From a bacterium (GTDB lineage: Bacteria; Patescibacteriota; Minisyncoccia; UBA6257; JAGOQP01): a stretch of 64,000 bases of DNA. The notes below the pieces were generated by a model, which saw nothing but the letters and a program-made list of their open reading frames with translations, searched no databases and was not told the origin of the DNA. This document shows positions 15,947 to 60,592 of this stretch, piece after piece (position 1 is the stretch's first letter; every line of letters starts with the position of its first letter). A program made the translations under genes and the position numbers. The stretch is taken from assembly GCA_021812345.1 (NCBI GenBank), contig JAKANP010000002.1, positions 6,394 through 70,393 of the forward strand. Direction: 5' to 3'.

Positions 15947-18151
15947 TTATTTTTTTGAACCTCCGGCAGGTGGTGCTGATGGAGCACTACTAGATGAGCT
16001 TTCTCTATATGCATTTCCCGCAGCCATATCCCCCAAAACGCTTTTTTCCACTCTATTTCCTAAACGTTGTCCTACTAAACCAAATTCTCTGAGTTGATCC
16101 TGGAATCCTTTGAGTTCAGTAGAATTTAATTTATCCACCCCACTATCATACGCTTTCTTTAACGATCCGGTTAGTTCAGCCTCCTTTGTCACGGCTTTTA
16201 TTAAAGTCTTCATTAAATATGTTTGCTGATCCGGTTTTACCCCTCTAAGCGCCCCGTAAAATCCATTACCCGATGTTTCGTTGTTTATATAATTGGCGTG
16301 AGCAAGACGGTCATGTTTTTCTGATTCCGAAAGGCTTTTTTCATCAACACCGAACATATTTTGGCTGATAATTCTCTGATTGTCAGAACTATTATATTTA
16401 TTATCAAAGGCGGTCCTAGCATCACTCAACCCTTTTTCGGCACTACTAAAAGGCTCCAATTCCTTTTTATAGTCATCGTCAGAAATTTCTCCTTTCAAAG
16501 CCCTTAATTCCAATTCAGTCCTTTTTTTAATACCATCAGAAGTGTAAATAGAGTCATATTTTTTACGAGCTTCTAAAGTTGATCTATTGTCGCTAGCCGC
16601 AACATAAACTTGATCGGCAGCTTTTTTATTTCCTTCTCTTTCCAATTTTTCTCCGAAAGATACCAAGGACTCTCTCCCGTCTTTATCATTTCCATACCCC
16701 AAACTTTTTATAACACTCGGATCAATTCTGCCTTTTTCAGCAAGAGACTGCATCAATCCCTCTTTATCTTGACCACTGACTGATGACGCTAATTTCTTGA
16801 CATCTTCCGGATTTAGAGCGGCATACATTCTTCTGCGTTCTTCTCTGTACTCCGTCTCTTTTTTGCGAACAGATGTTTCACCTCGAGTTAGCCCCCTTGC
16901 AACTGCGCCAGCCCCAAGAAATCTTCCGACCCTAGTATTGGCGGCCCACTGAGCTCCTTTTTTTACCGGAGTTATCATTGGTCTGCCGACTCTTGCCGCA
17001 CCTCTTGTAGTTTTATTTTTAGCCCATCCTTGAGCCTTACTGGTAGCTTTGTTCGCTTGTTTTAATATAAAACTGCTTCCGGCCATTCCTAAACTTTGAG
17101 AAATTTTAAGACCTCCTATAAGTATCGCTCCGGACATTAAAGTAAGCATTATAGCATCAAATCCGTGGACCCCTCCCGTCTGATCAGGAGAGCCACTTAG
17201 GCCCGTAAAACCAAGGGACGATGAATTGCTCATCATTATCATTGATAATTTTACAAAAAGAAGCATTAGCGGAGCGAAAAATACCCATTTTAAAAAATGA
17301 GTCCACCAATCACGCCAAAATCTGTAAGCAGAAGGAAATATCCACAAAAGCCACGCGCCAGGAGCCAAAATAAGCAAAAACGATATATAAAAATATCTCA
17401 ATAAAAACATAATTGCCATAACCAACAAAACAAAAGAGACGAAAACCGCAACCAATATTTGAATAAAAAGATTTATTACATCTCCTATGTTTTGTATATC
17501 GCCCTGTAAATCTTTTGAAGCCACGTTCATCACGGTAGAATTTGACGTTAATACACTACTTACCTTACTGTTTTCAAGAATCATCATGCTGACCTTGTCG
17601 CTTACTTGCGCGGGGTCGTTTCTATTTGCTATGTTTTGGTTTAATGTGATATCTTGCAAAAAAGAATTTGAAAAAACGTCCGAAACTTTAATAATCGCTC
17701 CACCGATCATCAAACTAAAATTTACAATCAAAGCGGCGACCACCAATTTCCATAAGATTGATTGCGCTTGATAACTTTTTATTCTCAAAATAGTAGCGAT
17801 AGCAATAATGATTATCCCCAGAACAAATCCTAAATTAGCCAAATCCCTAAAAGTAGTCCAGCCTTTATATACAAAACTGTTTTGGTCAAAAATCTGGGTA
17901 GTAATTTTTTGAGTTAAAGTCAAAGAAGCGGCGGTTAAAGTGGCAGCGAGCTTCATTATCCCCGCCACTAGAATGTCTTTTATCGTAAGCATTACTTTCT
18001 GAAAAATATCGGAAATGGCGCTTCCAGCAACACTACCTAGACCAAAGATGGCAGCGTTGGCTTCTTTATAAGAAAAAGAAAACATCAAAAACAACATCAG
18101 GCAAAAAATGATGATCTTGTTGTATTTTTTGAATATTTTATTTCTTTCCAT
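15947..18151 (-). CDS. VirB6/TrbL-like polytopic inner-membrane protein with long hydrophilic C-terminal extension
   Basis: Signal peptide, then at least 6 TM helices over about 350 aa, then a roughly 370-aa charged cytoplasmic tail. This size and topology is typical of TrbL/VirB6 in T4SS loci. Confidence 0.5.
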   Translation of the reverse strand: MERNKIFKKYNKIIIFCLMLFLMFSFSYKEANAAIFGLGSVAGSAISDIFQKVMLTIKDILVAGIMKLAATLTAASLTLTQKITTQIFDQNSFVYKGWTTFRDLANLGFVLGIIIIAIATILRIKSYQAQSILWKLVVAALIVNFSLMIGGAIIKVSDVFSNSFLQDITLNQNIANRNDPAQVSDKVSMMILENSKVSSVLTSNSTVMNVASKDLQGDIQNIGDVINLFIQILVAVFVSFVLLVMAIMFLLRYFYISFLLILAPGAWLLWIFPSAYRFWRDWWTHFLKWVFFAPLMLLFVKLSMIMMSNSSSLGFTGLSGSPDQTGGVHGFDAIMLTLMSGAILIGGLKISQSLGMAGSSFILKQANKATSKAQGWAKNKTTRGAARVGRPMITPVKKGAQWAANTRVGRFLGAGAVARGLTRGETSVRKKETEYREERRRMYAALNPEDVKKLASSVSGQDKEGLMQSLAEKGRIDPSVIKSLGYGNDKDGRESLVSFGEKLEREGNKKAADQVYVAASDNRSTLEARKKYDSIYTSDGIKKRTELELRALKGEISDDDYKKELEPFSSAEKGLSDARTAFDNKYNSSDNQRIISQNMFGVDEKSLSESEKHDRLAHANYINNETSGNGFYGALRGVKPDQQTYLMKTLIKAVTKEAELTGSLKKAYDSGVDKLNSTELKGFQDQLREFGLVGQRLGNRVEKSVLGDMAAGNAYRESSSSSAPSAPPAGGSKK

Positions 18152-18161
18152 ATAATTTTAT

Positions 18162-19703
18162 TTATTGAGCGGGGCAAGAAAAAGACGATAAGGCGCTGTT
18201 AAAATTACTCAACATCGTTTCGGTTGTGCCTGTTTGTCCGGAGCCGGCCATTTGCGCATCACCAATTATCGTCTTGTTGGCATCATTGTTTATAAAATCA
18301 TTATATGTTGATTGAGCTTGTGCAACGGCGCTGTCATCCGAATAATCGAGATTATTAAGTGTGTCCAAATTAGCCGAAGCTTCGCTTGCCACAGAGGAAA
18401 ATCCTTGTTGAAAAGTATTTAACGCGTCTAAAGCCGATGAAATTGTCATTTGCACCATATTACCGCCTCCCTGGTCAACAGAAATTAAAGAAGAAGAACA
18501 GGTATTATTGAAGTTAGTTGCCAAAGCAATGTCGGCATTAACAGCCGGAAGCAAAACGCCATTTACATAATTACCCACATCAGTATAAGCTTTAACAGCA
18601 TCGGACAAAGATTGCTTGTTGGCGCTTATTTTGTCATTTTGAATATTTTGCGGAATGTCTGAATTATTAATTCCTTGATTTGTCCCGCTAACCGACCATT
18701 GGCTTCCGTTGCTACTTACATGATTTAATCCTTCTGTTAATATTCTAGACGCTAAAGCGTTCAAAATTGCCGCTAAAGCGCTCTGGACATTTGAAGAATA
18801 CTGAAAATTGGCTCCCACTGCCTGCATTATCGCCCCGGCCGCTACACTCCCGGGAGTTTTCATTTCCCAAGACGTACACTCACTCTGGACAGCATAATTA
18901 ACACAAGCATCGTGTTGCGGGTCTCCTTGACATGTACTTTCGGCATCAGCTAAAGCTTTTTGGTCAGTGCATACTTTGTTGTCGGTAAATCCTTGTGAAG
19001 CGACCGCTTGAGTTTGCGCGATAGTGCTTTGAAGCGCTATTTTTTTATTTACCGCATCTTCAAGATTGCTCCATGCCAATGCCGAATCAACCTGAGGAGA
19101 AATTAAAGCGTCAAAGGCCGACCACCCCATATCGGTAAAAATTGATACCGGTCCGTTAGGATTTTCTATATTTCTTTTTATGTCGTCAAAGGTGCATTGC
19201 GTGGGAACTCCGTAGTATTGGTCGCCACTGCCTCCATATCCATACTGCTGAGCCAGGATTCCCAATCTCGCCTGGAATTGGACACCCAAAGGAGCGCAGA
19301 GATTAACGGTCCCGTTTGATAAATTATTAACATATTGTATTGCCGTACCTACCCCGATGTCGGTAGCGGCTTGTCCCAAATATTGCCCCCAATCGTTTAT
19401 ATATCCTGAACCGCTACCGCTCCCTCCAGAACTGCCATTTATTTGAGCTACGATATCTCTTTGCATTTTTGAAATAACAATGGCCACAATTATATCCCTG
19501 TAATGTTGTTGAATTTCTGTCCAGGTGGTTGCTAGATATTTTTGCAAAGCCATTTGTAATATGGCCGGAATACTACCGATTTGAAATGTTGGCCAACCTG
19601 CCTGAGCCACCTTTGGGCCAGAATTAAAAACTCCAAAAAAGTTTACGGAAATCACGGAACAAACAACAAACAGAATAATTATTTTTTTTAAAAATGAATT
19701 CAT
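18162..19703 (-). CDS. Secreted hypothetical protein (signal peptide, Gly/Ser linker), T4SS-locus associated
   Basis: N-terminal signal/TM MNSFLKKIIILFVVCSVISVNFFG, a GSSGGSGSGSG linker, and a Cys-containing extracellular domain. It overlaps the upstream gene by 4 nt, suggesting operonic coupling. Confidence 0.4.
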   Translation of the reverse strand: MNSFLKKIIILFVVCSVISVNFFGVFNSGPKVAQAGWPTFQIGSIPAILQMALQKYLATTWTEIQQHYRDIIVAIVISKMQRDIVAQINGSSGGSGSGSGYINDWGQYLGQAATDIGVGTAIQYVNNLSNGTVNLCAPLGVQFQARLGILAQQYGYGGSGDQYYGVPTQCTFDDIKRNIENPNGPVSIFTDMGWSAFDALISPQVDSALAWSNLEDAVNKKIALQSTIAQTQAVASQGFTDNKVCTDQKALADAESTCQGDPQHDACVNYAVQSECTSWEMKTPGSVAAGAIMQAVGANFQYSSNVQSALAAILNALASRILTEGLNHVSSNGSQWSVSGTNQGINNSDIPQNIQNDKISANKQSLSDAVKAYTDVGNYVNGVLLPAVNADIALATNFNNTCSSSLISVDQGGGNMVQMTISSALDALNTFQQGFSSVASEASANLDTLNNLDYSDDSAVAQAQSTYNDFINNDANKTIIGDAQMAGSGQTGTTETMLSNFNSALSSFSCPAQ

Positions 19704-20576: not shown

Positions 20577-21362
20577 TCAAAACAATAGAGAAATTTGATA
20601 AGCATCTTGCTGAGTCATATCTTGAGGTCGAATATTTTTATTTAAAGAATGTTCTTTAAAAACCGATGCGATAGTGTCCTTATTATACCCTCCAAAAATC
20701 AGGTTATTGACCAATGTTTTTCTCGGTTGCTTGAATGCTTTTTTTATAAAAGAATAATATTTATCGGCATTATTCCAATTAACATCATCTTTTAAATCCA
20801 ATTCCAATACCGCCGATTCCACTTCCGGCGAAGGCGCGAAATTTCCCGATGCAACCGATATTATAATTTTTGGTTCCGCCCAAAATCCGACGCTCATTGA
20901 AAGCAGGCTCGAATCGGGAGCTTTGGCGCAAATTCTTTGCGCCACTTCTTTTTGGATGAGCAAAATTGTCTTTATGGGTTTGATTTTCAGCTCTCCGATA
21001 ATTCGCAAAAGATGGCCTGTTATGTAATAAGGAATGTTGCCGACGAGTTTGTATTTGGTATTTTGTATTTGGTATTTTGTATGCAAAATTGGAAGAATTT
21101 CTAAAACATCTCCATAGATAATTTCAATGTTTTTGTCTCCTGAAAATTTTTCTTTCAAGCCATCTATTAATCGCCCATCTTTTTCGATGACAATTATTTT
21201 GACGTCTTTCCCTTCTGCGAATTTAATTATCTCTTCAGTTAATTCTCCGTGGCCGGGCCCGATTTCAACAATAATTTCTCCGTTTTTTATTTCTACGGCT
21301 TGAGCTATTTTTGATAAAATCGTTTTATTTTTTAAAAAATGTTGTCCTAAATATCTTGGCAT
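20577..21362 (-). CDS. rsmA: 16S rRNA (adenine1518/1519-N6)-dimethyltransferase RsmA/KsgA
   Basis: MPRYLGQHFLKN start, SAM-binding EIGPGHGELTEEI, and a C-terminal KsgA fold. 261 aa. Confidence 0.85.
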   Translation of the reverse strand: MPRYLGQHFLKNKTILSKIAQAVEIKNGEIIVEIGPGHGELTEEIIKFAEGKDVKIIVIEKDGRLIDGLKEKFSGDKNIEIIYGDVLEILPILHTKYQIQNTKYKLVGNIPYYITGHLLRIIGELKIKPIKTILLIQKEVAQRICAKAPDSSLLSMSVGFWAEPKIIISVASGNFAPSPEVESAVLELDLKDDVNWNNADKYYSFIKKAFKQPRKTLVNNLIFGGYNKDTIASVFKEHSLNKNIRPQDMTQQDAYQISLLF

Positions 21363-26848: not shown

Positions 26849-28171
26849 TTAAGGATTAATCGTAGTTGTTCCCGTGGTGGTCGTCGTAGGCGAAGTTACC
26901 GGTGGCACCGGTGGCGGAACTATCGGAGTAGTCGTTGAAGTAATCGTTGAGGTGGTTGTAGTAATTCCAGTTGATTGATTTTGTGCCGGCAACGCTTTTA
27001 ATCTTTTAATAATATCAGCCATCTGATTGTAGGATGTCGCCATAACCAAATAATTATTCCCGCCAGCAGTCATCCACGCATATTCAAAAACTTTAGCCGT
27101 CTTAAGATCATAAACTAGATATCTCACGGAAACTCCGCTGATTATTCCCCCTTTAAATTCAATTTTAGAAGGAACTGTTGTAGTGGAAACAAAAAGATTT
27201 TTAACATCCGAGTAACCATTTTCCAAAATTGAGCCGAGTGATGAAGATGCCTGATCTAAACTAACGGAACTTTTTAATTTCAGAACAACTCCAAACTTTG
27301 CTCCTCCGGTTTTGTCATAGTAAAGCCAAGAAGTAAAATCACGATCAAAAACTTGACTCAACATTTGAGATTCTACGGGAAAATAAGATTTTAAAAATTG
27401 AGTTGATTCAATCGGAGTTGAACTGGCATCAACAAAAGCCAAATCCTTTACACTCGCGACAAGCATCTTTTCTTTTGAAGAAGATGCGACTACGGACTGA
27501 AAATCCGGTAAGTCCACAGGATTGATAACTAAAGTTTGAGCTTTTGTCGGATTTAGAATTAATGATTGATGGACTAACGGCGGAATAACCGGAACATTTG
27601 AAACCGGAGTAGAGGTTGGAGTTGAAGTTTGAGTAACAGGAGGAGGCAATAATGGCAACGTGCTTGTTGTATTATTGGATGCCGTCGGTATGGAAATTTG
27701 AGGCGAAGACGACATTCCTGAAACCAAATAATATGCGCCATACCCGATTCCTCCGGCAACAACCAATCCTAAAACTATAAATAAGATTGTTTTCAAATTA
27801 AGACCGGGTTTTGAGTTCAAAGCTGGCTGACCGTCTGATGGCTGATAAGAGGCCTGAGAAAATGACGGCATCGGCTCTGAAGAAACCGGCGGAGTTTGCT
27901 GAGCCGGCGTTTCCGGCGTCGCATAATTTTGAGATTGAAAATTGGTCTGAGGATTTTGCGCCACAGGCTGTTGCTGTCCCATGTCAGGCAACTCGGGAGC
28001 ATTAATTATTTGCGACTGAGGAGCTTCCCCTCCGCTTTGTTTAACCGATTCTAAATCGGATTGCATGCTTCTCACTCCCACCTGAGAGTCCATTGACGGA
28101 GGCGGAGGCGGAACATTTGACGACTGATTTTGAGAATCGGGGAAATTGTACGGGTTTGGATTGTTGTCCAT
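26849..28171 (-). CDS. Hypothetical single-pass membrane protein, Pro-rich N-terminus and Thr-rich C-terminus
   Basis: One central TM helix (ILFIVLGLVVAGGIGYGAYYLV) with low-complexity P/Q and T/P-rich flanks. Confidence 0.35.
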   Translation of the reverse strand: MDNNPNPYNFPDSQNQSSNVPPPPPSMDSQVGVRSMQSDLESVKQSGGEAPQSQIINAPELPDMGQQQPVAQNPQTNFQSQNYATPETPAQQTPPVSSEPMPSFSQASYQPSDGQPALNSKPGLNLKTILFIVLGLVVAGGIGYGAYYLVSGMSSSPQISIPTASNNTTSTLPLLPPPVTQTSTPTSTPVSNVPVIPPLVHQSLILNPTKAQTLVINPVDLPDFQSVVASSSKEKMLVASVKDLAFVDASSTPIESTQFLKSYFPVESQMLSQVFDRDFTSWLYYDKTGGAKFGVVLKLKSSVSLDQASSSLGSILENGYSDVKNLFVSTTTVPSKIEFKGGIISGVSVRYLVYDLKTAKVFEYAWMTAGGNNYLVMATSYNQMADIIKRLKALPAQNQSTGITTTTSTITSTTTPIVPPPVPPVTSPTTTTTGTTTINP

Positions 28172-28344
28172 AAAAAATAAATTTTAAATATAAATAAAAG
28201 TGGCCTTTGAAAGATTATACCACAAAACAAACAAAAAATGATTGTGGATAACTTTTTGGTGCTAATTTCAAATTATGATACCAATTATTATTTTTAAAAA
28301 ATGACCTGATTGAAAATTTGTTCCATTTTTAATTTGTTTTTGTC

Positions 28345-28680
28345 ATTCCGGATTTACATGCCCTCTGAAGCTCTGACAAAGTATGGGCATGCCCTCCGTA
28401 GCTTTAGCGAGGGATGGAGCCTGCCCTCCGTAACTTTAGCGAAGGATGGAGCCTGCCCTCCGTAGCTTTAGCGAAGGATGGGAAAGGAGGTGGCGAGTTT
28501 GCAAGACGGAGGATTTGTAAAAAATGTATTTTGTATTTAGTATTTAGTATTTTGCTTGTCCTGAGCGGAGTTGAAGGACGGAGGATTTATAAAATCCCTC
28601 CCGCCCTACGGCGTACTCCCTTTAAAAAAGGGAGAATTATTTTTCGCCTGCCTGCCGGTAGGCAGGTATTTCGTAGCCAA
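28345..28680. repeat. Modular GC-rich intergenic repeat locus A (tandem 31-32-bp units plus shared hairpin modules)
   Basis: A 3.5x tandem array of GCCCTCCGTAGCTTTAGCGAAGGATGGAGCCT (28360-28482) is followed by modules shared with loci B and C: AAAGGAGGTGGCGAG, GGAGGATTTGTAAAATCCCTCC, TCCCTTTAAAAAAGGGAGA, GCCTGCCTGCCGGTAGGCAGG, and the 38-mer GTAAAAAATGTATTTTGTATTTAGTATTTAGTATTTTG. Confidence 0.8.
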
Positions 28681-28886
28681 ATATTTATTTGTATGTAAAA
28701 GACTGTGAAAATGGTCGCCACGCAAAACTCTTGACTTTTGGGCTGATGCGAGTATAATTGTGTTAAATCGTGCAAAAGGCGCGGTTTTTTGTTGCCTTAT
28801 TCAAAAGGCTAAAAGCACTCAAAAAATAAATAAATGGCTTGAAATCTAACTTTTTTATCAAGTCATAATATAATTAACTAAAAAAT

Positions 28887-29411
28887 ATGGGTAAACGTTT
28901 AAATTTAATTATAGTTTTTATTGCCACTGCCACGGTTTTAGCCACAAACTTAACCACCAGCAGAATAGCCGCTTCCGGATTTTTGGGGGCGCTATACGGA
29001 GTAAAAACCAGCGCTCAAGAAGTTAATCCCGATAGAAGCTTGGCTTCCGATTCAAACACTAAAAACGACTCGGTTGTCGAAAAAAATACGGTTTCGGGGA
29101 AAAATCCAAATCAAAACAAGCAAATGAAAATAACGGTCACGGCCTACACCAACGACCCGGCCGAAACCAAAGATTACGCCATTGGAATAACCGCAATGGG
29201 AACTCACACCAGAGACGGCGTTGCCGCCGCCAACTTTCTCCCTTTTGGGACAAAGTTCCAACTTCCTGAAATATACGGAGATAAAATATTCACCGTGGAA
29301 GACAGGATGAACGCCAAATACAATAATCAAAAGAGAGTTGATATTTGGATGTTGGAAAAATATCAGGCATTTGATTTTGGAAAAAGGACAACGACAATGC
29401 AACTTCTTTAA
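28887..29411 (+). CDS. Secreted 3D-domain protein (MltA/YuiC-like cell-wall-associated)
   Basis: Signal peptide, then the C-terminal block KITVTAYTNDP...GTKFQLPEIYGDKIFTVEDRMNAKYNNQKRVDIWM, which matches the 3D (three conserved Asp) domain pattern. Confidence 0.55.
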   Translation: MGKRLNLIIVFIATATVLATNLTTSRIAASGFLGALYGVKTSAQEVNPDRSLASDSNTKNDSVVEKNTVSGKNPNQNKQMKITVTAYTNDPAETKDYAIGITAMGTHTRDGVAAANFLPFGTKFQLPEIYGDKIFTVEDRMNAKYNNQKRVDIWMLEKYQAFDFGKRTTTMQLL

Positions 29412-32730: not shown

Positions 32731-33645
32731 ATGAATGAAGTTGAAAAATATATAAAAGAATATCTTGATTATCTGGAGGTGGAAAAGAATCGCTCGCCTA
32801 AGACGATCGAGAATTATCGACGCTATTTAAATTTTTTTGTTAAAATCTCCGGCGCTAAAAATCTCAAAGATGTCAATTTTGAAAATATTCGCAGATTTCG
32901 CCTCGATTTGGCAAGAAGAGCCGGAGAAGAGAGCGAATTTCTTAAAAAAAATACACAAAGTTATTACGTGATAGCCATAAGAAATTTTTTGAAATATCTG
33001 ATAAAAAATTCCATAAAAACTTCCGTTTCCCCGGAACAAATAGAACTTCCTAAAGTTTCTCAAAGACAGATTGAAATTATGGAATATTCCGACCTGGAAA
33101 GATTTCTAAACAGTCCGTCGGGAGATTCTTTAAGGAGTTTAAGAGATAAAGCGATTTTAGAAACCCTCTTTTCCACCGGGCTTCGTATTTCGGAACTTTG
33201 TTCTTTATCAAGGTATCAGGATTTTGACAGAGGCGAGGTAACCGTTCGAGGCAAGGGAGGAAAATTGAGAGTGGTGTTTTTTTCCGATGATGCAAAAAAG
33301 GCGATAAAAAAATATCTTGATAAAAGAAGCGATGCGGAAGAGGCGCTTTTTGTGAGTTTGAATAAATCAAAAAATCCAAAAGTTATAGGGAAAATAATTC
33401 CTCGCGCCATTCAACGGCTGGTAAGGTATTATGCCAAAAAATCAGGCACATTGGACAAAGTCACGCCTCATCAATTAAGACACCAATTTGCCACCGATCT
33501 TTTGATGAATGGAGCCGATATTCGTTCGGTTCAAGCTCTGCTTGGGCACGCGAACATTGCCACCACTCAAATATACACGCACGTTACCAATAAAGAACTC
33601 AAAGAAATTCATAAAACTTTCCACGGGAAAAGAAGAAGCGATTGA
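32731..33645 (+). CDS. Tyrosine site-specific recombinase (XerC/XerD-like)
   Basis: N-terminal SAM-like core-binding domain (YLDYLEVEKNRSPKTIENYRRYLNFF). The C-terminal catalytic block HQLRHQFATDLLMNGADIRSVQALLGHANIATTQIYTHV has the R..HxxR..Y signature. Confidence 0.8.
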   Translation: MNEVEKYIKEYLDYLEVEKNRSPKTIENYRRYLNFFVKISGAKNLKDVNFENIRRFRLDLARRAGEESEFLKKNTQSYYVIAIRNFLKYLIKNSIKTSVSPEQIELPKVSQRQIEIMEYSDLERFLNSPSGDSLRSLRDKAILETLFSTGLRISELCSLSRYQDFDRGEVTVRGKGGKLRVVFFSDDAKKAIKKYLDKRSDAEEALFVSLNKSKNPKVIGKIIPRAIQRLVRYYAKKSGTLDKVTPHQLRHQFATDLLMNGADIRSVQALLGHANIATTQIYTHVTNKELKEIHKTFHGKRRSD

Positions 33646-33684: not shown

Positions 33685-33769
33685 GCCGAGGTGGCGAAAT
33701 TGGCTATACGCACTAGCTTTAGGAGCTAGCGCTCGAAAGAGCATGCGGGTTCGACTCCCGCCCTCGGCA
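33685..33769 (+). tRNA. tRNA-Leu (anticodon TAG), type II with long variable arm
   Basis: Acceptor GCCGAGG/CCTCGGC pairs perfectly, a D-arm is present, the anticodon stem-loop CTAGC-TTTAGGA-GCTAG gives anticodon TAG, a long variable arm precedes the T-arm GGGTTCGACTCCCGC, and the discriminator is A. No encoded CCA. Confidence 0.85.
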
Positions 33770-33945
33770 CTGAAATGTTTTGATGAATATTTTGACGAGA
33801 GCAAGCAAATTTATTTGCTTGCGTGGCGGAGTCGAAAGTACGAAGCGATATTCCGACAGCAGTCGGAATCGCGAGGAGCGGCCCGCGAGCCGGCCGAATG
33901 ACTGATGAGGCCGGACTTGTGGGAGACTCCCGCCCTCGGCACAAT

Positions 33946-37765: not shown

Positions 37766-38060
37766 AGTCGTCATTCTGAGCGAAGTCGAAGGAGCTTGTC
37801 CTGAGCGAAGTCGAAGGAGCTTGTCCTGAGCGAAGTCGAAGGAGCTTGTCCTGAGCGAAGTCGAAGGACGGAGGATTTGTAAAATCCCTCCCGCCTTACG
37901 GCGTACTCCCTTTATGAAAGGGAGAATTATTTGTTTTGTTCCTCCTTTTCTAAAGGAGGTGGCGAGCTAGCGAGACAGAGGATTTGTATTCGTAAATCCC
38001 TCGCCCTGACGGGCACTCCCTTTAACAAAGGGAGAATGAACACAACAAAAGAGCCCCGAA
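37766..38060. repeat. Modular GC-rich intergenic repeat locus B (4x tandem 25-bp units plus two hairpin-module copies)
   Basis: CTTGTCCTGAGCGAAGTCGAAGGAG occurs 4x in tandem (37768-37868). It is followed by two variant copies of the GGAGGATTTGTAAAATCCCTCC...TCCCTTTATGAAAGGGAGA module and the AAAGGAGGTGGCGAG module, all shared with loci A and C. Confidence 0.8.
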
Positions 38061-60040: not shown

Positions 60041-60223
60041 CTTAAAATAAAAAATTAATTATAATATTTTTCTTTAATCGGCAGTTAAAAAATCAAATGC
60101 CTTTTTTAAACTTAAAACAGCATTTGATTTATAAAAACCAATTTAAGAATTTTTAAGGTTGATAAAAATTTAACAAAAAATTTTTTTCAAGTCAATTTAC
60201 CAAAATAATAAGAAGATTTGTAA

Positions 60224-60592
60224 AAAATGTATTTTGTATTTAGTATTTAGTATTTTGCGCGCCCTCCGTAGCTTTAGCGAAGAAGGAATTTGCCTGCCTG
60301 CCGGTAGGCGGGGAATCCAGTCCACATTGTCATCCTGAATTTATTTCAGGATCCACGTTTCCTGGATTCCAGCCTACGCTGGAATGACGAGAGGGTTTGT
60401 CATCCTGAATTTAGCAGGATCCATGCTTCCTGGATTCCAGCATACGCTGGAATGACAAATGTACCTCAGCTTTTTCAGTTTTTTGGTTAAAAAAATTCCT
60501 CCTTTTCTAAAGGAGGTGGCCTGAGATTTGTCGAAGGAGCTTGTCCTGAGCGAAGTCGAAGGAGCTTGTCCTGAGCGAAGTCGAAGGGTGGA
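60224..60592. repeat. Modular GC-rich intergenic repeat locus C (shared 38-mer, 2x tandem 60-bp hairpin unit, 3x tandem 25-bp unit)
   Basis: Shares the 38-mer GTAAAAAATGTATTTTGTATTTAGTATTTAGTATTTTG, GCCCTCCGTAGCTTTAGCGAAG and GCCTGCCTGCCGGTAGGCGG with locus A. It has a 2x tandem unit TGTCATCCTGAATTTATTTCAGGATCCACGTTTCCTGGATTCCAGCCTACGCTGGAATGAC (60328-60457) with nested inverted repeats. It then has AAAGGAGGTGGC and CTTGTCCTGAGCGAAGTCGAAGGAG x3, shared with locus B. Confidence 0.8.

Follow-up and report, generated by a model that had tools for sequence, protein, structure and literature searches.

Locus A, a patchwork of short repeat modules at 28341-28666 between two divergent genes, is probably a BIME/NIME-like mosaic of REP-type single-stranded DNA (ssDNA) hairpin repeats and one of at least four such clusters in the genome of this ultra-small bacterium (Patescibacteria). 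As judged by sequence comparison, its units are members, or close look-alikes, of repeat families known across bacteria, and locus A is a new example of a known repeat kind, not a new kind of element; the best reading of the mosaic is that it is selfish or domesticated. If this interpretation is true, REP-type, Ssn-related repeats and NIME/BIME-like mosaics occur in streamlined Patescibacteria genomes; at least one hairpin class (M1), not covered by the published Ssn-related-motif (SRM/NTS) pattern, goes closely together with small GIY-YIG genes of a distinct clade; and M1 together with GIY-YIG constitutes a candidate new site-specific ssDNA nuclease/target pair. For the window (the whole 64,000-nt stretch of DNA analysed), it would mean that the locus is neither a new regulatory RNA nor a new element class.

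Module composition of the repeat clusters

About eight short modules are common to locus A, locus B (37769-38040) and locus C (60212-60588), in an order that differs from locus to locus, and the modules quoted in the preliminary description were found at or near the positions it gave. The modules and the genes that flank locus A are as follows:

26849-28171, - strand: flanking gene of locus A
28341-28355, + strand: truncated CGTC-type head TGTCATTCCGGATTT at the left edge of locus A, tag and left stem only, read from sequence
28356-28481, + strand: M2 array of the 32-nt unit (GCCT)GCCCTCCGTAGCTTTAGCGAAGGATGGA, three good copies and one degenerate copy
28483-28497, + strand: right half of M3, AAAGGAGGTGGCGAG
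28505-28554, + strand: left half of M4, GACGGAGGATTTGTA, then M8, an AT-rich 36-mer
28555-28578, + strand: single degenerate M1 unit CTTGTCCTGAGCGGAGTTGAAGGA, two substitutions from the consensus
28577-28642, + strand: M4 hairpin GACGGAGGATTTATAAAATCCCTCCCGCC and M5 hairpin ACTCCCTTTAAAAAAGGGAGAAT, forming with M1 an 89-nt composite
28646-28666, + strand: M6 hairpin GCCTGCCTGCCGGTAGGCAGG
28887-29411, + strand: flanking gene of locus A
37769-37868, + strand: M1 array of locus B, CGTCATTCTGAGCGAAGTCGAAGGAGCT then three TGTCCTGAGCGAAGTCGAAGGA(GCT) units, period 25 nt
37867-38040, + strand: remainder of locus B, with M4, M5, M3, an M4 variant (longer loop) and a second M5
60212-60312, + strand: left part of locus C, with GAAGATTTGTA and M8, a single M2 unit (60262-60287) and M6 (60292-60312)
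60328-60355, + strand: M7a, TGTC, ATCCTGAA, TTTAT, TTCAGGAT, CCA, a CGTC-type REP
60361-60389, - strand: M7b, CGTC, ATTCCAGC, GTAG, GCTGGAAT, CCAGG, a match to the SRM pattern
60398-60423, + strand: second copy of M7a, with a 2-nt deletion
60429-60457, - strand: second M7b unit TGTCATTCCAGCGTATGCTGGAATCCAGG, a match to the SRM pattern
60498-60588, + strand: right part of locus C, with the M3 hairpin then an M1 array (one degenerate and two further units)

M1 is a 25-nt unit, GTCCTGAGCGAAGTCGAAGGA, and all module copies have the + orientation, the sole exceptions being the two M7b units. Locus D, a fourth cluster 1.7 kb outside the window on the side of its start, has its modules in another order and the same orientation, and shares with locus A the junction of M4 left half and M8. 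The roughly 82 kb of genome read hold four clusters with about 35 units, and within the 64 kb no module copy was found outside loci A to C when up to about 14% substitutions were allowed. A partial M8-like match at 21044-21082, considered as a fifth locus, was judged by eye from its translation to be ordinary coding sequence of an RsmA/KsgA-type gene.

The GC-richness noted in the preliminary description is borne out, with 45-50% at the three loci against about 31% in other intergenic DNA: GC content is 48.2% at locus A, 49.6% at locus B and 45.1% at locus C, compared with 37.4% for the whole window and 30.9% for the remaining intergenic DNA. Several of its details have to be adjusted. The tandem 32-mer reported as 3.5 copies is present, and Tandem Repeats Finder gives 3.2 copies at 28379-28481 (90% matches), preceded by a degenerate fourth copy from 28356. 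The sequence quoted as GGAGGATTTGTAAAATCCCTCC exists, but is the locus B copy; locus A reads ...TTTATAAAA... at this place. The AAAGGAGGTGGCGAG "box" turns out to be one half of the M3 hairpin, its right arm; the left arm is missing in locus A, and the complete hairpin, CCTCCTTTTCTAAAGGAGGTGGC, is found at 37941-37963 and 60498-60520. The identity of a 38-mer to locus C was real but underestimated, as 28512-28555 is identical to 60215-60258 over 44 nt.

Tandem Repeats Finder also detected a 25-nt repeat at 37776-37868 (3.7 copies, 100% matches) and at 60530-60587 (2.3 copies), and a 68-nt repeat at 60327-60456 in locus C (1.9 copies); M8 shows a 7-nt TGTATTT periodicity. Larger blocks are likewise shared: the 89-nt block at 28554-28642 in locus A is 93% identical to 37844-37932 in locus B, and 60530-60587 in locus C is 100% identical to 37785-37842 in locus B over 58 nt. 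Identical blocks of 58 and 44 nt at loci 22-32 kb apart point to recent copying or gene conversion.

Folded as ssDNA, M3, M5, M6, M7a and M7b form strong hairpins (z -3.5 to -5.2; M7b, z -4.9) and M4 a moderate one (z -2.4), while M1 (z +0.8), M2 (z 0.0) and the AT-rich M8 fold no better than their shuffles with nearest-neighbour DNA energies. The assignment of M1 and M2 as hairpins rests on covariation of 2-4 outer pairs and on assumed G.A pairing, as opposed to folding energies. M3, M4 and M5 are best explained as lineage-restricted hairpins and M8 as AT-rich filler; M4 and M8, which had no matches in viral contigs, may be lineage-specific.

That the clusters are an artefact or a misreading (an assembly chimera, a degenerate CRISPR array or a purely local duplication) is highly improbable. 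Short-read contigs do end within these repeats, and there is a weak match to CRISPR-DR54 (E=0.46); but two ENA assemblies and one NCBI MAG all give the same sequence, a second MAG carries locus C unchanged except for one indel, and the 25-nt and 32-nt tandem units abut without the unique spacers of a CRISPR layout. Against local duplication stand the fourth cluster outside the window and the occurrence of module cores in many genomes and viral contigs, the carriers including cultured isolates (Sphingomonas, Flavobacterium, Niastella and Ulvibacter); the dispersed character that had been proposed for the family is thus upheld.

Relation to known repeat families

The preliminary description likened the modular, hairpin-rich and shuffled organization to BOX/REP/ERIC-type elements, of which REP is also our comparison, but held the sequences to be unrelated and the family to be novel. 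Locus C contradicts the latter claim. CGTC-tagged REPs are defined by an unpaired CGTC tag (variants TGTC and CCTC), an 8-9 bp stem with A and T as its first residues, a loop of 4-5 nt and an unpaired 3' tail that is mostly CCA; the superfamily, with tens to thousands of dispersed copies per genome, includes Neisseria dRS3 and Rickettsia RPE-4 and RPE-6 (Di Nocera, De Gregorio & Rocco 2013, PMC3733652). M7a (ATCCTGAA, loop of 5) and M7b (ATTCCAGC, loop of 4) conform to this definition, each with an 8-bp stem, an AT start and a CCA tail, and with the tags TGTC in M7a and CGTC and TGTC in M7b. The SRM pattern of Chenal et al. 2025, HGTCWYN(0-2)YYVSBRHN(0-5)WNVSBRGN(0-2)RNCYNB (PMC11893778), matches twice in the 64 kb, at the two M7b units (60362-60389 and 60430-60457, - strand), against 0.16 matches expected from 100 shuffles. 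M7a and M7b are best explained as canonical CGTC-tagged REPs, alias Ssn-related motifs.

The remaining modules depart from the definition to differing degrees. The truncated head of locus A starts with its tag (TGTC) followed by AT, like the M7a units and the first M1 unit of locus B; the latter is tagged CGTC and the other M1 units TGTC. The 7-8 "pairs" of M1 require two G.A mismatches, and its tandem copies lack the A-T start and, ending in GCT, the CCA tail. M2, which ends in AGCC, has TGCC here and a larger conserved loop, and M3 to M6 have neither the tag nor the stem layout. Loci A and B gave no SRM match, and neither M1 nor M2 nor M7a fits the pattern. The units share with CGTC REPs an unpaired (C/T)GTC tag, a short GC-rich hairpin, an intergenic position and an occurrence in many phyla with little divergence between taxa. 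They differ in arrangement, since clusters are rare and head-to-head dimers dominant among CGTC REPs (PMC3733652), whereas the arrays here are mostly head-to-tail and set in multi-class mosaics; they also differ in host, as the five phyla of that study exclude Patescibacteria. We found no paper mentioning REPs in Patescibacteria, and full-text literature searches with the module strings, or with their typical "junk peptide" translations, returned no relevant paper. A generic detector for (C/T)GTC followed by a perfect hairpin was abandoned, as it fired equally often in reversed control sequence.

In organization the loci come closest to the NIMEs of Neisseria and the BIMEs of E. coli, in which intergenic REP-type hairpins alternate with other short modules in variable combinations, at many loci and with varying copy number. 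Module sequences and organism differ: in BIMEs, GTAG REPs take turns in inverted orientation and IHF, gyrase and Pol I are bound, and NIMEs are RS units bracketed by dRS3, whereas the present mosaics mix at least five hairpin classes with direct 25-nt and 32-nt tandem arrays. BOX, ERIC and RUP are also modular or palindromic intergenic repeats of bacteria; however, they are 100-150 bp or longer, are genus-restricted and have a fixed module order or MITE-like terminal repeats, whereas the present units are hairpins of 20-35 nt that cross phyla.

Distribution of the hairpin cores and link to GIY-YIG genes

Species-representative genomes carry the exact 21-mer of M1 in at least 120 stretches, which span about 15 phyla, a further result against "unrelated sequence"; it is also present in 14 viral contigs of 31-72% GC. 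Among 130 M1 contexts, 88% have T or C directly 5' of GTC, with G-C-Y preceding. Outside CTGAGC...CGAAG, two further base pairs form in 94% and 98% of 270 instances, compared with 69% and 77% in shuffled sequence, the pair types being CG, GC, AT and TA. The conserved arms CTGAG/CGAAG can pair via tandem G.A; in the window's own copies the closing G faces G. M1 is best explained as a variant of the CGTC-REP design: a (C/T)GTC tag, a short covarying stem and a loop of 4-6 nt. The idea that M1 regularly caps long variable stems was dropped, because pairing of the eight bases on each side of the 21-mer in fixed register was not above the control, a free-register duplex of the flanks was only mildly above it (-9.3 vs. 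-7.8 kcal/mol), and only the 2-3 pairs adjacent to the core covary.

M2 and M6 behave similarly. The M2 core CCGTAGCTTTAGCGAAGG was found in 32 viral stretches with covarying flanking stems, four flanking positions being paired in 27-29 of the 32 contexts by several pair types; the stem needs G.A, T:A and A.G pairs, and the tag, TGCC in the window, is GCTTGTC in most viral copies. For M6, all 21 nt are matched in the relative L187, where the adjoining protein is only 51% identical, and a 19-mer from it occurs in 13 viral stretches of 33-70% GC; over the M2 and M6 cores together the viral contigs span 30-71% GC. M2 and M6 are best explained as hairpins that recur across taxa, their loop being conserved and their stem variable. 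A short M2-like regular expression proved non-specific and was discarded. The M7a pattern was found in 11 viral stretches, and a composite with the architecture of 37867-38040 in locus B in a viral contig of 54% GC (L285/L286). Module classes otherwise seldom co-occur in other genomes, and the multi-class mosaic is therefore a peculiarity that our best explanation does not predict.

These distributions bear on the proposal that the clusters are integration or excision scars or hypervariable junk, a neutral by-product with no dedicated enzyme and with taxa sharing them through transfer of flanking DNA. At the tRNA at 33685-33769 and its L187 ortholog, the tRNA 3' end is duplicated, the copies enclose a GC-rich hairpin cluster, and a tyrosine recombinase gene adjoins them, and the arrays lie in non-conserved spacers. 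However, loci A to D have no att-like direct repeats, and exact cores of 19-21 nt, their loops conserved and their stems covarying, recur in unrelated flanks over about 15 phyla, which requires a sequence-specific selection or copying mechanism; we consider the scar or junk proposal unlikely.

Among the genes near M1, one enzyme family stood out. In 5 of 120 M1 loci examined (at least 120 exist) a small GIY-YIG gene lies within 5-480 nt, and all-against-all clustering of ORFs at 177 motif-bearing loci gave GIY-YIG as the only lead. In the reverse test, 80 metagenome loci encoding the M1-linked GIY-YIG clade were scanned for M1-type motifs: 26 carry one, and the density is 1.48 per kb from -300 to 0 and 0.78 per kb from 0 to +300, against a background of 0.01-0.03 per kb beyond 1 kb. 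M1-type motifs are thus enriched 50-100 times within 300 nt of this clade of small GIY-YIG genes. The encoded proteins belong to the Pfam family GIY-YIG and resemble solved UPF0213 structures. For M2, none of the 80 loci carried the motif, and no neighbour gene recurred.

Ssn GIY-YIG nucleases bind and cut such hairpins as ssDNA only, and their genes are typically hairpin-flanked (PMC11893778). Our observations parallel this NTS/SsnA system in three respects: two locus C units fit the SRM pattern; M1-type hairpins are strongly enriched around small single-domain GIY-YIG genes, frequently flanking them on either side as in NTS-ssnA-NTS; and the motif is directional with a conserved upstream tag. 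They differ in that M1, M2 and M6 fall outside the SRM pattern. No SRM match was found within 300 nt of the M1-linked genes at the 80 loci, so M1 and GIY-YIG, should they form a motif-enzyme pair, form a different one. They differ also in that no ssn-like gene was found here: tblastn and a purpose-built HMM gave no gene of the M1-linked clade across the window and 17.5 kb of contig next to it (window, L189 and L191; about 82 kb in total), nor was a transposase found there. We infer that an Ssn-type nuclease may be present and acting in this organism.

The other candidate enzymes are transposases. Under this alternative the units would be GTAG REPs or REPINs moved by a RAYT (IS200/IS605-like Y1), or IS110 targets, with no tie to GIY-YIG. 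REP/BIME mosaics and REP-flanked RAYT genes are well documented (PMC3733652, PMC2817692); GTAG occurs within M2 and M7b; and in sphingomonads M1-type units form inverted, REPIN-like doublets. GTAG REPs are short extragenic palindromes for which mobilization of ssDNA hairpins by a small dedicated nuclease with a hairpin-flanked gene has been proposed. In our units, however, GTAG lies inside the loop or stem of M2 and in the loop of M7b, not as the unpaired GTAG (or GGAG) that such REPs have at the 5' foot of the palindrome, and the conserved unpaired tag is (C/T)GTC; the partner family elsewhere is GIY-YIG, not HUH/Y1; Pfam scans of 40 window proteins detected no Y1 or IS110 family, and the gene tables of overlapping loci list no Y1; no such family or other transposase recurs beside M1, M2 and M7a across 177 loci; and for CGTC REPs no transposase link emerged in the study of Di Nocera et al. 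(PMC3733652). Movement by a RAYT or targeting by IS110 is accordingly improbable.

Flanking genes, RNA structure and a possible mode of action

The location of locus A between divergent gene starts, as originally noted, is correct, and an influence on promoter activity had been suggested from it. The suggestion has been weakened, as the mosaic covers neither of the two conserved upstream regions, one being 28731-28796, with promoter and leader for the + strand gene, and the other the stretch upstream of the - strand gene that reaches to about 28266. In a relative with 87% identity (L184), both flanks and promoters of locus A are kept and the mosaic is absent, so a conserved regulator it is not. 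This comparison leaves the exact insertion boundaries undefined, since divergence has affected all of the spacer from one conserved promoter region to the other.

The same comparison weighs on the proposal that the arrays are cis- or trans-acting structured RNA, be it an sRNA, an mRNA stabilizer, a terminator or attenuator, or a promoter modulator of the flanking genes. The arrays are hairpin-rich, on the + strand M5 and the T-run behind it resemble a terminator by score, the genes on the two sides of loci B and C are co-directional, and intergenic M1 units across genomes are more often in sense orientation downstream of a gene (34 vs. 16), the pattern from which Di Nocera et al. proposed RNA roles. 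Nevertheless, Rfam at gathering thresholds identified only two tRNAs in the window, and in E-value mode loci A to C gave no family below E=0.06, far below gathering scores; the spacer of the 87% relative keeps the adjoining promoter and leader without the mosaic; loci B and C carry the tag on the strand antisense to their neighbouring genes, locus B follows a separate intrinsic terminator, and locus A sits between divergent genes; the module order varies over the four loci, which speaks against one folded RNA; and SsnA, the only characterized partner of this repeat kind, acts on ssDNA and does not bind RNA (PMC11893778). The structured-RNA proposal, which the preliminary description had also raised, is in our view unlikely.

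Under our preferred interpretation of a REP-type ssDNA hairpin mosaic, the units would act as DNA, not as RNA or protein. The tagged strand would fold when DNA becomes single-stranded, in replication, repair or uptake by natural transformation; a small single-domain Ssn-type GIY-YIG nuclease would bind the folded strand and nick just upstream; and units would spread or be copied beside existing units. Arrays would grow by tandem duplication, gene conversion would homogenize copies between loci, and clusters would persist only where spacer DNA is dispensable.

A more far-reaching version, to which we assign a rather low probability, is that M1 (GCYYGTC as tag, then CTGAGC-N4-5-CGAAG) and, it may be, also M2 and M6 are recognition hairpins for as yet uncharacterized specificity classes among Ssn-like GIY-YIG ssDNA nucleases; that in Patescibacteria these nucleases are encoded in hairpin-flanked cassettes inserted just 3' of tRNA-Gln genes; and that orphan mosaics serve as ssDNA-restriction "punctuation", limiting recombination of incoming DNA around particular genes in a naturally DNA-scavenging episymbiont. 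If true, this version would give the NTS/SsnA mechanism of Neisseria a counterpart in the Candidate Phyla Radiation, as an extension of it, and offer new programmable ssDNA-cutter specificities.

The mosaics also have practical consequences for annotation. A spurious 94-aa ORF across locus A had no match among 5.8 billion proteins, so the array is not a recurrent "protein" and has yielded no relatives in this way; arrays of this kind break short-read assemblies, and gene callers can take them for ORFs.

Composition and setting of the mosaics

Every item in the module inventory of the preliminary description was recovered at loci A (28341-28666), B (37769-38040) and C (60212-60588), the GC-rich intergenic mosaics built from short modules (M1-M8), and a fourth mosaic, locus D, lies outside the window.

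Repeats of the mosaics (tandem repeats from Tandem Repeats Finder) and genes beside locus A
28379-28481: 32-nt tandem repeat of locus A, 3.2 copies, 90% matches
37776-37868 and 60530-60587: 25-nt tandem repeat
60327-60456: 68-nt tandem repeat of locus C
1.7 kb beyond the left edge of the window: locus D, with M3, M4-half, M8, four M2 units and M6 in this order, oriented as in A-C
26849-28171, - strand: left neighbour of locus A, without Pfam domain
28887-29411, + strand: right neighbour of locus A; homologues called 3D-domain proteins in some sources, nothing in Pfam for this copy

BLAST between the loci showed that A and B share 89 nt at 93% identity, A and C 44 identical nt, and B and C 58 identical nt; the stretches shared without mismatch by loci lying 22-32 kb apart point to recent copying or gene conversion. 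Inside the 64-kb window, a substitution-tolerant search found the modules confined to loci A, B and C, on the + strand throughout except for two M7b units. GC content is 45-50% at the loci, 37.4% in the window and 30.9% in the remaining intergenic DNA. The same sequence is present in three assemblies with no differences; a second MAG carries a locus C identical but for a single indel; and the window is contained in contig DAIERY010000001.1 of MAG GCA_027346585.1.

The genes flanking locus A are divergent, and loci B and C each lie between co-directional genes of the - strand. The homologues of the gene beside locus A all come from Patescibacteria/Parcubacteria-group bins. dnaA and dnaN are situated 6-8 kb past the right end of the window and, because almost all window genes are on the - strand, we infer that replication crosses it from right to left. 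Some 6-8 kb to the left of the window, a large serine recombinase with Resolvase, Recombinase and Zn_ribbon_recom domains (17315-18889 of the adjoining stretch L191) is encoded together with several HTH regulators; it probably belongs to an integrated element adjoining the window.

In a relative with an 87% identical orthologous protein (L184), the sequence 5' of the - strand gene is kept up to ~28266, and the promoter (TTGACT-16-TATAAT) and terminator-like leader of the + strand gene are kept from ~28727; between both kept regions lies unrelated AT-rich DNA with zero modules. Because more distant relatives likewise keep the leader and lack the mosaic, because an Rfam check of the mosaic, earlier suggested to be a possible structured-RNA family, returned no matching family, and because the spurious ORF across locus A has no homologue, the array is, on these comparisons, without conservation at its site; it occupies a dispensable spacer between two promoter regions. 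The leader region itself (28731-28796) comprises the near-consensus promoter and then the hairpin AAATCGTGCAAAAGGCGCGGTTTTTTGTTGCC, both ahead of the 3D-domain gene; it is kept in L184, L185 and L187 (proteins 87% and ~51% identical), where the surrounding spacer is not, has no Rfam match, and may be an attenuator or small riboswitch-like leader.

Likeness to known repeat families

CGTC-tagged REPs, as defined by Di Nocera et al. 2013 (PMC3733652), carry an unpaired CGTC, TGTC or CCTC tag, a stem of 8-9 bp starting A and T, a loop of 4-5 nt and a CCA tail. Five phyla carry such elements, with little divergence between taxa; Neisseria dRS3 and Rickettsia RPE-4 and RPE-6 belong to them, and the study found no transposase dedicated to them. 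M7a (TGTC-ATCCTGAA-TTTAT-TTCAGGAT-CCA) and M7b (CGTC-ATTCCAGC-GTAG-GCTGGAAT-CCA) agree with this definition point by point. NTS, the Neisseria version, and related Ssn-related motifs (SRMs) are bound and cut by SsnA-type nucleases, which are 94-aa, single-domain GIY-YIG proteins that act solely on ssDNA and solely on the tagged strand, whose genes typically have the motif on their flanks, and which restrain natural transformation (Chenal et al. 2025, PMC11893778). The degenerate SRM pattern of that study has exactly two matches in the window, both M7b units (0.16 expected from dinucleotide shuffles), and none in M1, M2 or M7a.

These matches argue against the "novel family" of the preliminary description and bear out its REP/BIME-like characterization: the mosaic adds a further variant, or a further occurrence, of a repeat kind already known. 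A full-text literature search found no paper mentioning REPs in this phylum.

Compared with shuffles, M3, M5, M6, M7a and M7b fold far better as ssDNA and M4 moderately better, and M1, M2 and M8 do not. Both M1 and M2 are poor hairpins under the energy model, which gives no credit to the pairing that the conserved M1 arms CTGAG and CGAAG could form (C:G, T:A, G.A, A.G, G:C). In CTGAGC-N3-7-CGAAG (n=270), two positions outside the core are paired in 94% and 98% of cases, versus 69% and 77% with shuffled partners; the outer pairs include CG, GC, AT and TA types, and the loop is 4-5 nt of variable sequence. T or C precedes GTC in 88% of 130 distinct M1 contexts, with G-C-Y further 5'. For M2, the four positions flanking CC...GG pair, through more than one type of base pair, in 27-29 of 32 contexts, and GCTTG usually comes before the unit.

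Dispersal of the modules and the GIY-YIG genes beside M1

The M1 21-mer GTCCTGAGCGAAGTCGAAGGA has exact matches in at least 120 stretches of GTDB species representatives and in 14 IMG/VR contigs. Hosts among the matches listed, cultured isolates included, are Alpha- and Gammaproteobacteria, Acidobacteriota, Chloroflexota, Bacteroidota, Planctomycetota, Verrucomicrobiota, Desulfobacterota, Omnitrophota, Eremiobacterota, Gemmatimonadota, Elusimicrobia, Zixibacteria and several Patescibacteria lineages; the stretches range from 31 to 72% GC, with flanks unrelated to one another. Viral stretches contain the M2 core (32), M6 (13), the M7a pattern (11) and M3 (2), and the scan of viral contigs gave no match to M4 or M8. 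M6 is kept at 21/21 nt in a relative whose adjoining protein is only 51% identical. The modules are thus not restricted to the three loci, and their presence in other genomes favours the dispersed repeat family first proposed. Several stretches with the M2 core CCGTAGCTTTAGCGAAGG have 30-37% GC (L145, L148, L155, L157, L166, L170), and four of them come from IMG/VR contigs named giant-virus bins (GVMAG); the two sides of the stem are AT-rich there and complement each other (ttatatt/aatataa). Either a real repeat family in giant viruses or a binning error could account for this.

Clustering of ORFs around 177 motif-bearing loci revealed no recurrent transposase; it did bring out a small GIY-YIG gene 5-480 nt from M1 at five loci, which belong to Flavobacterium, Ferruginibacter, Chitinophagales, Terriglobales and one Patescibacteria bin. 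In the Terriglobales locus, inverted TGTCATTCCGAGCGCAGCGAGGAATCTG units lie on both sides of the gene. The proteins belong to Pfam GIY-YIG, with UPF0213 proteins as nearest solved structures. Conversely, among 80 metagenome loci encoding this clade, 26 have the M1-type motif, at densities of 1.48/kb in the 300 nt before the gene, 0.78/kb in the 300 nt after it, and 0.01-0.03/kb more than 1 kb away. Because M1 is enriched beside these genes and the SRM pattern is absent within 300 nt of them in the 80 loci, M1 seems to be the hairpin cognate to a GIY-YIG clade different from the one characterised so far. M2 showed no link to the clade in the same loci.

Of the 48 metagenome loci scanned, at least 13 carry a tRNA-Gln gene 9-330 nt upstream of the M1-associated GIY-YIG gene and on its strand.

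Loci with tRNA-Gln upstream of the GIY-YIG gene
L192, L200, L201, L203, L204, L207, L208, L210, L211, L213, L214, L216, L240 (also L135)

Where the upstream region was read (e.g. L135, L192), M1-type hairpins lie in the interval between both genes, starting from the tRNA 3' end; the arrangement marks either an insertion target or a position where the cassette is conserved. Both the pairing of M1 with GIY-YIG genes and, in Patescibacteria, the linkage of this pairing to tRNA-Gln are worth following. In two Chitinophagales genomes (L106, L123), the GIY-YIG ORF continues without a stop codon into a downstream gene, taken for purK by its N-terminal sequence. M1-type hairpins precede the ORF, and L123 has another at the junction; fusion of the two genes, or insertion at the start of the putative purK, could explain the arrangement.

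Proposed assembly and other repeats in the window

The best-supported reading of the mosaic is a BIME/NIME-like assembly of REP-type ssDNA hairpins, in which some units are canonical (CGTC/SRM) and the rest are their relatives or hairpins specific to the lineage. If the NTS/SsnA system and the association of M1 with GIY-YIG genes are a guide, the tagged strand would form its hairpins once single-stranded, and a small GIY-YIG nuclease would nick it just upstream of them. In the head-to-tail arrays only 3 nt separate a hairpin from the next tag, which, speculatively, would fit copying beside an existing unit or slippage. The reading is weakened because no unit of locus A matches the SRM pattern, M1 and M2 fold poorly under the energy model, no partner was found for M2, and different module classes are seldom together in other genomes; that neither a GIY-YIG gene nor a transposase was found in the ~82 kb of genome examined also counts against it.

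Three further arrangements were observed in the window. A tRNA (33685-33769) situated just downstream of a gene for a tyrosine recombinase (32731-33645) has, behind it, a ~150-nt GC-rich hairpin cluster and then a directly repeated copy of its own 3' end, GACTCCCGCCCTCGGCAC (region 33685-33940); the orthologous tRNA in L187 (14722-15015) has a different GC-rich insert, including M6, with the same kind of 3'-end duplication, and the arrangement in the window resembles an att footprint, as of a very small integrated element. At 50104-50234, a 46-nt unit unrelated to the modules of loci A-C occurs three times in tandem, each copy with a hairpin (GGGTTATTTT...AAAATAACC), just downstream of a small gene (~50240-50512, - strand) that is HU-like by eye. 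At 63609-63835, an 18-bp perfect palindrome, ATGTTTCACGTGAAACAT, occurs three times in 160 nt with one half-site nearby. A UPF0102-family gene lies downstream, and dnaA and dnaN are 6-8 kb away; the palindromes probably form an operator array for a regulator.
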